DNA from: a virus
Lineage: Duplodnaviria; Caudoviricetes
Virus record (IMG/VR): IMGVR_UViG_3300029288_000081
Coordinates: 107,467-171,466 of that record
DNA: 64,000 bases
Reading direction: 5' to 3' (one strand)
Shown: positions 51,304-54,078 of the stretch, one piece after another
How positions within the stretch are numbered: the stretch's first letter is position 1
How the letters are laid out: every line of letters begins with the position of its first letter
The notes under the pieces: generated by a model
Told to the model about the DNA's origin: nothing
What the model saw: the letters and a program-made list of their open reading frames with translations, nothing else
Databases searched by the model: none
Position numbers and translations under genes: made by a program

Positions 51304-54078
51304 ATGGCCCTGGTCTACAAGCGCAGCACGAAGAATGCGGCTCGCCGGTACGAGAGATCGTCCGGCATGGAGCCCAATCGTGGCCTGCGCTCGAACCCCG
51401 GGGTCAGCGCGTTGACGGTGGTGAACACCGGGCGCGCCCCGAATGGTCGTTTTCAGAGTGGCCGACCGAGTGGCCGGGGCTCGAAGAAGGCGCCGAAGAA
51501 GAATCCCTTTCAGTGGATCTCCGGACGCAAGAAGCACATCCACGAGAGCCCTTCGTACCGGACCCTTCACGGGGCCAAGGCGTGGAAGGCCAGTCACCCT
51601 GGCGGCAAGGGGCGCGGTCGAGCCCGGCTCTACGCGACTGACGAGTACGGAACGGTCCTGTCCAAGGCGATCCCCGAGCGACTGCTCACGAATCCCACGA
51701 GGAGAAGCGGAATGGCATACAACATCGGAGCACTGCGTCGCGCCATGCGAGCGAACTACGGCGCAGGCGGCGTGGACGACCCGGGCGCATCTTCGCTCTT
51801 CGCGGCAGCTCGTGCGATCGACACCGGCGGCCGCTCCTCGACGGCGCCGCGCAAGCGTCGCCCCTCCGCTCGCCGGCCGCGCTCGTCGCGTCCCGCCGAG
51901 AGCGCGTCCATGGGTGGGATGACCATCGCGTCCCGCGGCAAGCGTCGCAGCAGCCGGCACCGTGCCGGCACGCGCGGCAAGCAGCACGACGCGCACATCC
52001 GCACCCACGTGCGCCACACGGCCGGCAAGAAGGCAGCCGCGACCCGCAAGCGCAACGCGAGCCGCCGTGCGGCCGCGGCGAAGAAGGCAGCCAGGACGCG
52101 GAAGCGTCGGGCGAGCGGCCGTCTGCCCAGCAGCAGGCGTCGGGCGAGCCGCCGGGGCGGCAAGCGCCGGGCGACCAAGCGGAGCGCGACGAAGCGCCGG
52201 GCGAGCCGTCGCGGCAGCAAGCGCCGGGCGAGCCGTCGTCGTCGGAGCCGCCGGTCGAGCAAGCGCGGCCTCAGCCGTCGCTCCTACTTCCACGGCCGCC
52301 GAGTGCGTCTCACGGGTCGTGAGTACCTCGACAAGTACCTGACGCGCGGCTTCATGCCGACCGTCACCCGCGTCGGCCGTCTGCCCCTCAGCCGCTCGGG
52401 CCGCCCGTCGATCATGACGTACCCGATCCCGCGCGGAGTCGGCCGTCTCTCCAGCTCCCGCTCGGTGCGCGGCGGCACGCGCCGCGGCTACGCGGTCGGG
52501 GCCAGCTACCGCAAGGGCAAGAAGGGGCGCCACAAGCGCCGCATGACAGCCCTCGCGGCGAACGGTCGTCGCCGGTCGCGTCGCGGCAGCCGCCGCTCCT
52601 CGCGCCGCCGGGGCAGCCGTCGCAGCTCGCGCCGTCGCGCTTCGCGCCGCCGGGTCACCAGGAACACCATGTACGCCACAGCCAACGGTCGTCGTCGGTC
52701 CCGTCGGGCCTCGCGCCGCCGAGGCTCGCGCCGCAGCTCGCGTCGCGCCTCGCGCCGCCGGGTCAGCCGCAACCAGAAGTACGTCGTGATGAACGGCCGT
52801 CGCCGGTCGCGTCGCGGCAGCCGCCGGGGCTCGCGTCGCCGGGGCTCGCGCCGCGGCCGTCGCATGACCCGCAACATGCTCGCGGTCTCCAAGCTCCGCT
52901 ACCGCGGCAAGGGTTCCAGCCGCGTCGGCACGCCGAAGGGCCGGTACTACCAGCTCGTCGAGTACGGGCCGAAGAGCGGCCGCAAGTACAGCCGCGCCGG
53001 CTACCCGGTGCTGGTGCCGCCGCACGTCTCGCAGTTCTCGTACGTGCGCAAGTTCCGCCTCGGCGGTGCTGCGCGTGACGCGCACTCGCGGGCCAAGTCG
53101 GGCGGCTACAAGGAGCGGAAGCGGTACAGCCGCTGGCGCAAGCCGCCGGCCTCGTGGCTCAGGAAGTCCAGCAGGAAGAAGAAGATGACGGCGAACAGGC
53201 GCTCGTCGAGGAGGTCGTCGATGCGAAGGAACCAGAAGTACGTCGTCATGAACCGCCGTCGTCGTGTCCGCAGGAACACGGGCTTCGCGTCCGTGCTCGG
53301 CGGCGCAGATCTGATGCGGGACGTCGTGACTCCGGTCATCGGCGGCACGGTCGGCTTCGTGGCGGCACGCCTGCTCTCGAACGGGCTCGCCAACGTCCCG
53401 CAGCTCCGCGGCATGCTCGACAGCGGCGCGGTGGACGCGGCGGGCGCGTCGAACACGAAGATCGCAGCGAACCTCCTCGGGATCGCGGCGACCCTCGGGC
53501 TCAGCACCAAGGTCGGCATCATCCGCCAGAACCGCGGCGCGCTCGTGACCGGCATGGGCCTCGCGCTCACCGATCGGCTCATCCAGCGCTTCTCGGCCGG
53601 CACGGCCTACGGCGGCTACCTCGGCGAGTACGTCGACCAGCCGATGAGCGGCTTCGGCGAGTACGTCGACCAGCCGATGAGCGGCTTCGGCGAGTACGTC
53701 GACCAGCCGATGAGCGGACTCGGCACGATGTACGCCGCGGCAGGCGTCGGCGAGTACGTCGAGGGCGTCGACCCGGCGAACATGGCCGGCGTGGACGGCC
53801 TGATGGACGTCATGGAGGCTGCGGCGGGCACCGCGATGGAAGCCGCAGCGGGCTTCGGCGACACCATGGGCTCCGGCGAGGCCGACGCCTCGCTCGCGGC
53901 GATGTACGCGAGGCGCCAGCCCCCGTTCGTCTCGACCGAGATGCCGGTCGGCGGCGCGCTCCCGATCAACACGCAGTCCCCCCTCGACAGGGAAGTCAAG
54001 GAGTCCCTCGTGACGCCGGAGGGCAAGGGCTTCGCAGGCGGCGTCTTCGCGCGGCACCTCTTCGCAGGGATGTTCTGA
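51304..54078 (+). CDS. Protamine-like Arg/Ser-rich core polyprotein fused to a 3-TM membrane domain
   Basis: About 650 aa of basic sequence punctuated by xxN sites, three hydrophobic segments, then GEYVDQPMSG(F/L) repeats and the end FARHLFAGMF. Confidence 0.8.
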   Translation: MALVYKRSTKNAARRYERSSGMEPNRGLRSNPGVSALTVVNTGRAPNGRFQSGRPSGRGSKKAPKKNPFQWISGRKKHIHESPSYRTLHGAKAWKASHPGGKGRGRARLYATDEYGTVLSKAIPERLLTNPTRRSGMAYNIGALRRAMRANYGAGGVDDPGASSLFAAARAIDTGGRSSTAPRKRRPSARRPRSSRPAESASMGGMTIASRGKRRSSRHRAGTRGKQHDAHIRTHVRHTAGKKAAATRKRNASRRAAAAKKAARTRKRRASGRLPSSRRRASRRGGKRRATKRSATKRRASRRGSKRRASRRRRSRRSSKRGLSRRSYFHGRRVRLTGREYLDKYLTRGFMPTVTRVGRLPLSRSGRPSIMTYPIPRGVGRLSSSRSVRGGTRRGYAVGASYRKGKKGRHKRRMTALAANGRRRSRRGSRRSSRRRGSRRSSRRRASRRRVTRNTMYATANGRRRSRRASRRRGSRRSSRRASRRRVSRNQKYVVMNGRRRSRRGSRRGSRRRGSRRGRRMTRNMLAVSKLRYRGKGSSRVGTPKGRYYQLVEYGPKSGRKYSRAGYPVLVPPHVSQFSYVRKFRLGGAARDAHSRAKSGGYKERKRYSRWRKPPASWLRKSSRKKKMTANRRSSRRSSMRRNQKYVVMNRRRRVRRNTGFASVLGGADLMRDVVTPVIGGTVGFVAARLLSNGLANVPQLRGMLDSGAVDAAGASNTKIAANLLGIAATLGLSTKVGIIRQNRGALVTGMGLALTDRLIQRFSAGTAYGGYLGEYVDQPMSGFGEYVDQPMSGFGEYVDQPMSGLGTMYAAAGVGEYVEGVDPANMAGVDGLMDVMEAAAGTAMEAAAGFGDTMGSGEADASLAAMYARRQPPFVSTEMPVGGALPINTQSPLDREVKESLVTPEGKGFAGGVFARHLFAGMF
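53621..53724 (+). repeat. 33-bp coding tandem repeat, three copies
   Basis: tcggcgagtacgtcgaccagccgatgagcggct x3, encoding GEYVDQPMSGF. Confidence 0.9.

Follow-up and report, generated by a model that had tools for sequence, protein, structure and literature searches.

The window analysed here comprises the last 64 kb (64,000 nucleotides, ~67% GC) of the 171,466-bp virus record IMGVR_UViG_3300029288_000081 of IMG/VR, which CheckV rates as complete. Its genes run leftward up to ~26 kb and rightward from ~31.7 kb, and the right (late) arm is almost entirely dark to the Pfam and PHROGs profiles that were run on 29 window proteins. Within this arm lies a gene for a 924-residue protein whose basic part, similar to protamines and histone H1, is joined to a hydrophobic helical domain; that the two belong to one conserved protein is supported by the evidence below. 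The family that it represents is undescribed and is confined to a lineage of uncultivated, GC-rich, ~140–300 kb bacterial viruses, for which the relatives compared here are metagenomic virus loci or genomes (L002, L004–L008, L029 and L030; G001 of 297,749 bp and G002 of 152,857 bp). Features of the locus are listed in Table 1, and residue numbers count from the ATG at 51304.

The plus-strand frame is open from GTG 51259 or ATG 51304 through 54078. On the opposite strand, a frame of equal length is open over the gene as well, as is common at such GC content. GC at the third codon position (GC3) is the highest of the three positions across the entire open reading frame (ORF), at 0.70–0.82 in the first 500 nt and 0.85–0.98 in the rest, and the plus frame was therefore chosen over the antisense one. 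A search with the last 270 residues retrieved at least 41 long homologues (515–950 aa, E values from 2e-152 to 4e-20). A MALVY(K/R) start is shared by more than 20 of them, including members that are only 36–40% identical in the C-terminal domain, and reads MALVYKRS here. L008 comes from the same virus in another sample; it is identical except for one GEYVDQPMSGF unit fewer and is the only close relative with DNA. Open frame, GC3 pattern, conserved start and homologues together bear out the view of an earlier note on this DNA that a single real protein is encoded. That note had named two observations that would count against it, namely translation starting only near the membrane domain and an Arg region that is not conserved as protein. 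Instead, the N-terminal start is conserved, and so are the open frame, several sequence islands and the charge of the Arg region.

Ten shorter homologues (395–494 aa) were also listed, and four of the five retrieved begin at MTRNML. We asked whether they reflect splitting of the gene or initiation close to the anchor and rejected this, because they are gene-caller artefacts: in L030 the plus frame is open for 972 aa from a MALVY start (L030:2381–5299), and the caller had put two antisense genes on the Arg region (minus-strand calls, L030:2836–4002). Public gene calls cut the family at internal Met residues (MTRN, MAYN and MEPN) and annotate ORFs on the opposite strand of the Arg-rich region; through such mis-annotation the family is under-counted in databases. 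Database matches are absent: no Pfam domain is found on the 41 homologues (precomputed) or on the window protein at E ≤ 0.01, no PHROG, PDB or fold match was found for the family, and a profile of the 41-sequence alignment retrieves no PDB sequence.

The charge of the protein is strongly asymmetric. Residues 1–650 consist to 55% of Arg, Ser, Lys and Gly (R 24.8%, K 7.2%, against D+E 2.5%), as the earlier note had described, and the Arg content of residues 401–500 reaches 41%. Net charge is +198 for residues 1–660 and about −11 for the remainder. Across six lineages (GC 63–69%) the arm carries 0.21–0.33 charges per residue, while the basic tracts drift from Arg/Ser to Lys/Ala (AKKAASKA type) at similar GC, with Lys/Ala found in P0031–P0038 and L029. 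Charge is thus kept while tract sequence drifts, which points to selection on charge over sequence, as in linker-histone tails and protamines.

By the sequence alignment and an AlphaFold2 (AF2) model, the basic part is not all low complexity and contains conserved islands and two small predicted folded domains. Its first 151 residues have counterparts at the N-terminus of this family alone (10 representative clusters). They consist of (i) a conserved peptide, MALVY...GMEPN (residues 1–25); (ii) a second island ending VVN (residues 33–43); (iii) a predicted alpha/beta domain (residues 68–130; predicted local distance difference test score, pLDDT, 66–89) flanked by N67 and N130; and (iv) a MAYNIGALRRAMRAN helix (residues 137–151). 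The tract that follows is rich in Arg, Ser and Ala here, whereas distant lineages have a Lys/Ala-rich, H1-like version. In the array, three Arg blocks (residues 421–454, 462–490 and 498–524, of 34, 29 and 27 aa; nt 52564–52875) are separated by TMYATAN and QKYVVMN. They had been called near-identical, and they are indeed alike as peptides, but the DNA is a 108-bp × 2.0 repeat with 76% matches, so that wording was generous. The spacer RNQKYVVMN does occur twice, as previously claimed (residues 489–497 and 642–650), and nowhere else in the genome, and a Q/P-K-Y-V-V-M-N spacer is also present in two copies in a distant lineage. Repeat number varies among homologues: between AVGASY and TRNML the array of relatives spans 56–167 aa with 2 to 5 or more blocks, and the number of GEYVDQPMSGF units, which follow the helices as the earlier note had it, changes by one in L008.

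Table 1. Features of the polycation gene, its upstream region and its downstream neighbours (window coordinates).
Feature	Position	Strand	Basis
Sigma-70-like promoter, TTGACA(CC)-N17-TAGTTT	51210..51238	+	Read directly; recurs upstream of orthologues
Conserved 5' leader, GAAGACCUGGGG...GGUCGAGCGGGUGA...	51245..51303	+	Alignment of 6 lineages
Full-length coding sequence, 924 aa + stop	51304..54078	+	Open frame, GC3, homologues
N-terminal conserved module, residues 1–151	51304..51756	+	Invariant alignment columns, AF2
Putative internal in-frame start, Met137	51712..51714	+	GAGGAG 7 nt upstream; Shine–Dalgarno kept in 8 lineages
Variable basic tract, residues 152–330, with long predicted basic helix 228–270	51757..52293	+	Composition, alignment, AF2
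Conserved island YFHGRRVRLTGREYLDKY...AVGASY, residues 331–402	52294..52509	+	Alignment; nearer lineages only
Asn-punctuated Arg/Ser array, residues 403–524	52510..52875	+	Composition, repeat finding, relatives
Predicted beta-rich domain and helix, residues 525–605	52876..53118	+	Most invariant columns of basic half
Second basic tract and short Arg blocks, residues 606–658, ending VRRN	53119..53277	+	Composition
Putative internal in-frame start, Met640	53221..53223	+	AGGAGG 6 nt upstream
Three-helix weakly hydrophobic (putative membrane) domain, residues 659–770	53278..53613	+	AF2, hydropathy
GEYVDQPMSGF repeats, 33 bp × 3.2	53621..53724	+	Tandem Repeats Finder, 97% matches
Acidic Gly/Ala/Met-rich region and conserved C-terminal peptide TPEGKGFAGGVFARHLFAGMF	53725..54075	+	Invariant T904, E906, G913, F915 and others
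272-aa paralogue, one Arg block and same helical/C-terminal module	54141..54959	+	36% identity, E 1e-25
278-aa highly conserved late protein, earlier labelled 'MCP' (major capsid protein)	55127..55963	+	64–70% identity in relatives

In the second predicted domain, AF2 places strands within residues 525–583 and a helix at 588–600 (pLDDT 60–76). Over the whole model, 609 of the 924 residues have pLDDT below 50, with ordered islands at 65–132, 228–270, 524–600 and 670–764. Fold searches with this model, which effectively left the domains 65–132 and 524–600 uncovered, gave nothing in BFVD at E ≤ 0.001; the VIA-wide search gave Z ≤ 7 with coverage of residues 667–770 only; and the best Foldseek matches in the PDB were three-transmembrane PsaL chains at a non-significant E of 0.2–1.

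The gene probably yields more than one product, judged from conserved internal signals. A GGAG-type motif lies 7–10 nt before Met137 in all eight lineages that have the region, while the residues preceding this Met differ between lineages (RRSG, RRTG, GRRP, GRSS, VGGE, RRVS and GGDDG). Before Met640, rare codons (AGG-AGG, GGG-AGG or CGG-AGG) form a Shine–Dalgarno sequence in 8/9 lineages; AGR accounts for 15 of the 178 Arg codons of the gene. As background, such a motif precedes 9 of 215 other internal ATGs. At both positions, therefore, an in-frame Shine–Dalgarno sequence and ATG are conserved independently of the encoded residues, as expected for nested genes. One mRNA would then probably give products of 924, 788 (Met137) and 285 aa (Met640). 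The last ranges from 285 to 363 aa in relatives and has the architecture of the paralogue. If used, the internal starts offer a second route to several products that the earlier note did not contain. We know of no description of three nested products from a polycation gene.

Upstream, the promoter proposed in the earlier note is present and conserved in relatives. Its −35 hexamer is perfect and its −10 matches the consensus at 3/6 positions, which is why a sigma-70 consensus scan did not call it at 51210. A −35 TTGAC. followed at the same spacing by TA...T recurs upstream of the orthologues in L002, L004, L005 and L007 and in one more lineage, represented by nine near-identical IMG/VR loci with TAAAAC as their −10. 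Between promoter and ATG lies a leader of ~60 nt that starts with GAAGACCUGGGG (promoter plus leader: window 51205–51303; L002:3250–3352; L004:9885–10000; L005:9895–10000; L007:9838–9937; L029:4340–4448), and a degenerate pattern of the leader finds 10 further IMG/VR loci, each followed by a MALVY-type start. RNAalifold predicts a small hairpin of −13.6 kcal/mol with two compensatory pairs, of tetraloop type (CUGC-UACG-GCGG here and CCUG-CGAA-CAGG elsewhere). The leader also has an invariant GGUCGAGCRGG. It contains no canonical Shine–Dalgarno sequence before ATG 51304 and matches no Rfam family. It may serve to control how the full-length product is translated. These upstream elements and the internal ribosome-binding sites and ATGs at Met137 and Met640 are, as conserved features, new in this analysis.

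A second conserved leader class appears to exist on the non-structural arm, where TTGACA(CC/GC)-N16-TAC(G/T)GT promoters at 18404, 23892 and 26076 (minus strand) are each followed by the same ACTTTCGACAGACGCGCC leader.

The hairpin leader without a canonical ribosome-binding site would also suit an RNA binder, i.e. an anti-terminator, translational regulator or RNA chaperone acting through arginine-rich motifs and perhaps regulating itself through the leader; R-R-N-R-R-R strings resemble arginine-rich RNA-binding motifs. However, ~660 basic residues, variable repeats and a hydrophobic anchor far exceed what a specific regulator needs, and the Lys/Ala H1-like tracts of the relatives are typical of DNA binders. 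We regard this explanation as very improbable.

The protein contains 27 Asn residues, and their distribution is far from random. The motif [VILM]-x-x-N occurs 14 times in residues 1–665 against 2.4 ± 1.4 expected from 5000 shuffles, so the Asn sites that had been noticed as dividing the Arg-rich region are real. Seven Asn are invariant across 41 sequences (N25, N41, N67, N151, N524, N650 and N658). In 657 Asn contexts from these sequences, position −3 is M, V or L in 30%, 23% and 14% (background 3%, 5% and 4%), and position +1 has no strong preference. Asn residues mark the edges of the predicted folded domains (N67/N130 around 68–130, and N524 before the strand at 525) and of every Arg block. 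Furthermore, 20 GC3-supported ORFs of the genome carry a single copy of hydrophobic-x-x-Asn followed by an Arg run, mostly within ~12 residues of the C-terminus. The motif is therefore a real signal shared across the genome, and a protease site is one reading of it. One of the late-arm proteins, of 128 aa (57113–57499, +), has 41% Arg+Lys, ends with a VSKN-RRR tag and is flanked by the conserved late genes for the 319-aa and 207-aa proteins; it is a second candidate genome-binding protein.

On the protease reading, the protein would be a polyprotein in which a virus-coded or DNA-dependent protease, or self-cleavage, cuts after each [M/V/L]-x-x-Asn to release protamine-like peptides of 8–35 residues, spacers and folded domains, and the peptides condense the genome. 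The 6-fold enrichment of the motif (M/V/L at position −3 in 67%, against 12% background) suits it, as do the many invariant Asn placed exactly at domain and Arg-block edges and the arrays of relatives, which read as 8–13-mers each ending RRN or SRN. Maturation proteases of T4 and adenovirus cut internal or core proteins (PMC9958956, PMC10081844). The late arm encodes, 8.7 kb downstream (62820–63767, +), a SprT-like Zn metalloprotease whose HEVAH motif is intact and which has an orthologue in L004; SPRTN acts on DNA-bound proteins, cutting them in disordered tails rich in K, R and S (PMC5128727). But SPRTN is not Asn-specific, and the SprT-like protease was rejected as a partner for the whole lineage, since PF10263 has no match in G001 or G002, both of which carry the polycation family. 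Peptidase_C13, Peptidase_C48 and Transglut_core (PF01841) are likewise unmatched in the genome, where the Peptidase_C48 search did not include the adenain family itself. In the ~20 other proteins the motif stands 6–12 residues from the C-terminus, or its Met is the initiator, so that a cut would release few residues; the Lys/Ala tracts of distant lineages lack Asn punctuation; and two of the 'M-x-x-N' Met residues are better explained as the conserved internal starts. Asn within Arg-rich motifs may contact bases instead. Asn40 in the arginine-rich motif of HIV-1 Rev does so. Overall, we judge the polyprotein explanation possible but rather unlikely.

The C-terminal part raises the membrane question. 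AF2 predicts three helices (670–696, 714–733 and 744–764), as the earlier note had seen, but they are only weakly hydrophobic: Kyte–Doolittle 19-residue peaks are 1.58 and 1.45 for two of them and below 1.0 for the third. Membrane insertion of this domain is plausible, with weak backing from hydropathy. Segment charges calculated from the sequence are +198 for the arm, about +1 for loop 1, about +3 for loop 2 and about −11 for the C-terminal part. Positively charged segments lie on the cytoplasmic face according to the positive-inside rule, which an N-in/C-out arrangement of the three helices would fit. The arm and the Arg tags would then lie on the cytoplasmic face, which would have to become the inner face of the particle if they are to contact packaged DNA. 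From this textbook topology, a wrapping or budding-type assembly would be favoured over a PRD1-type vesicle filled by a motor.

Three short hydrophobic helices, two adjacent paralogues and in-frame alternative starts beside positive charges also recall a lysis or permeabilising device, with the protein and its paralogue as a dual-start, holin-like pair and the arm doing no more than regulate timing. Products of 272–924 aa with a long acidic repeat tail are unlike known holins, however, the gene is located among the most conserved late genes, and a conserved 660-residue polycation is left unexplained. We consider this explanation extremely improbable.

Gene order around the polycation gene is fixed. 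In every relative examined, it is followed by the paralogue, a 255–278-aa protein and a protein of ~310 aa (319 aa here). The paralogue, which has 138 homologues, is always the next gene downstream and shares the last 270 residues, including the C-terminal acidic region; an Atlas search with it found only membrane-protein neighbours at TM-scores below 0.3. The 278-aa and 319-aa (56138–57097) proteins are the most conserved of the arm, with 58–70% identity where the C-terminal domain of the polycation has 36–51%, and this level of conservation would fit major structural proteins. As the earlier note put it, the gene has its own promoter and is co-oriented with the putative MCP gene; the most conserved late genes follow it directly on the same (+) strand. 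For the 278-aa protein, an AF2 model from an 8-sequence alignment gave no usable fold (pLDDT 32), and searches gave no Pfam match even at E 10, no PDB sequence match of note and no isolate-phage match. An Atlas lead (0.76) to P2_N/P2_C of PM2 could not be confirmed. In two relatives its gene is split after codon 14 by ~320 nt (L007:12924–14027) and ~755 nt (L002:6429–7968), and in L006 it is tandemly duplicated (2793–3518 and 3725–4450). The insertions, which match no Rfam intron family, could be introns or homing elements that sit in a highly expressed gene.

Relying on these features, we give an even chance to the explanation that the protein is a structural polycation that binds the viral genome and anchors it to a membrane or coat layer. 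In this mechanism, (i) the ~660-residue, mostly disordered arm with a net charge of about +200 would bind the viral double-stranded DNA (dsDNA) by charge, neutralise it and bridge it; (ii) the ~270-residue C-terminal module would fix the arm to the membrane or coat layer of the particle; and (iii) the nested products would give a mixture of copies of one anchor with and without the arm. The protein would thus act as a tether and condenser rather than as a free protamine. Half neutralisation of the genome would take ~900 full-length copies, roughly the protein share of an adenovirus core. We infer that the protein binds DNA, is part of the virion and inserts into a membrane, and that the internal starts are used.

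Several observations weigh against this structural role. Firstly, the helices fall below the usual transmembrane threshold (segments of ~18–20 residues with a Kyte–Doolittle 19-residue mean of at least 1.6), and their uncharged runs are only 15, 15 and 12 residues long. Secondly, full neutralisation of 342,932 DNA charges would require ~1,800 copies of a ~100-kDa protein, a heavy load. Thirdly, the TTGACACC promoter class also occurs four times (six with a looser pattern) on the opposite, minus-strand non-structural arm, so the promoter would also fit early or continuous expression. Fourthly, the family shows no homology to any virion protein, and the capsid role of the neighbouring gene is an unconfirmed label. 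Finally, capsid, portal, terminase, A32 and FtsK families were not recognised by Pfam and PHROGs on the window proteins or by genome profile searches, which leaves both the type of particle and its very existence as assumptions. The Pox_A32 and FtsK_SpoIIIE profiles have no match in the genome, which is weak negative evidence, and Metallophos has none either.

The shared promoter class and the long disordered arm would also suit an intracellular organiser outside the virion, made from a host-type promoter, which compacts or coats host or viral DNA or scaffolds a membrane-attached replication or assembly condensate, with the Arg-rich arm driving phase separation with nucleic acid, and the absence of virion evidence counts in its favour. 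This explanation is unlikely in our view: the place of the gene at the start of the block of most conserved late proteins is fixed, the paralogue lacks the arm, and the same Arg tag is found on many small late-arm proteins.

A more far-reaching extension of the structural role would be an enclosure without a motor. The 171-kb DNA would be gathered at a patch of viral membrane, on its cytoplasmic side, by hundreds of Arg arms from the polycation in three sizes, the paralogue and ~20 tagged membrane proteins. Membrane and coat would close around the condensed DNA, and a maturation cut at the Asn motif, made by a DNA-dependent protease or by self-cleavage, would loosen the core so that the genome can be delivered. 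We hold this to be decidedly unlikely; if true, prokaryotic viruses would have an assembly route driven by condensation and a processing code, neither of which is known from them.

Two other observations concern the wider genome. A 258-aa ORF (G000:C1 ~37424–38200 (−), = L033:1438–2214 (−)) has a weak Pkinase match in the catalytic-loop region (20.8 bits, cut-off 31.7); if real, by analogy with protamines, P6.9 and the core tail of hepatitis B virus (HBV), it could phosphorylate the RRxS-rich arm. In the window, an intein is suggested for a DUF2201 metallopeptidase/VWA gene (15841–18333, −) by a LAGLIDADG domain together with a weak match to intein splicing; a MoxR-like AAA gene (18883–20058) adjoins it.

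Tailed dsDNA phages pump naked DNA into preformed heads, and, to our knowledge, basic proteins that condense the genome have been described chiefly from viruses of eukaryotes (adenovirus, baculovirus and chlorella viruses). A conserved ~100-kDa, protamine/H1-like protein with a hydrophobic anchor, heading the late block in a whole lineage of viruses with no recognisable capsid, portal or terminase genes, points to a different organisation, and perhaps enclosure, of a large genome. The charge-conserved arm, the length-variable Asn-punctuated array, the three predicted nested products and the conserved promoter and leader provide handles for its study. Our literature search found no phage protein of this polycation-plus-anchor kind. 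In its proposed mode of action, the protein resembles adenovirus VII/mu/V, protamines and P6.9, H1 tails and the Arg arms of capsid proteins, and is a member of none of these groups.

Like adenovirus pVII, pre-mu (pX) and V, it would be an abundant, basic, largely disordered protein bound to dsDNA. The adenovirus core is ~50% protein by mass, with 500–800 copies of VII; the viral protease cuts pVII and pre-mu, and V links core to shell (PMC10081844). In our protein, condensing arm and tether would be joined in one chain. It differs in having no sequence or Pfam relation to these proteins, in its length of 924 aa, in its hydrophobic helical anchor and in its bacterial host, and the candidate site is hydrophobic-x-x-Asn rather than (M/I/L)XGX-G, its cleavage being a proposal only. 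In T4, hundreds of copies of basic internal or core proteins are packed along with the DNA, and the prohead protease gp21 trims them at short motifs (PMC9958956). The likeness lies in a short processing-like motif common to many late proteins of the genome. By contrast, T4 is a phage with an HK97 fold, portal and terminase, none of which is recognised among the genes here; the motif and its residue differ, and cleavage is again only proposed for the window protein.

P6.9 is reported to condense genomes of 80–180 kbp (PMC6669607). Blocks 421–524 share with protamines and P6.9 the Arg/Ser composition, RRxS-like patterns and presumed electrostatic condensation of DNA. Protamines and P6.9 are, however, free peptides of ~30–100 residues without a fold, whereas these blocks sit in a ~100-kDa protein with predicted domains (65–132 and 524–600) and an anchor. 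Distant members of the family have long Lys/Ala/Ser tracts (AKKAASKA) in which charge is kept and sequence is not, as in the tails of H1/H5; unlike H1/H5, neither the window protein nor any homologue has a winged helix (Pfam Linker_histone), and the name 'histone H1/5' given by JGI to homologue P0041 reflects composition only.

The internal starts recall nested phage genes (lambda C/Nu3, phiX174 A/A* and dual-start holins), in which a conserved internal ribosome-binding site and in-frame ATG likewise give C-terminal co-products; here the nested products are predictions from the sequence. Finally, the C-terminal domain of HBV core and the N-terminal arms of plant and insect RNA virus coat proteins are also disordered Arg/Ser genome-binding arms on a structural module, and a mix of arm-bearing and arm-less subunits would tune charge there as proposed for our protein. 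Those arms have 20–40 residues on a known capsid fold, whereas the arm described here spans ~660 residues on a helical, possibly membrane-embedded module.

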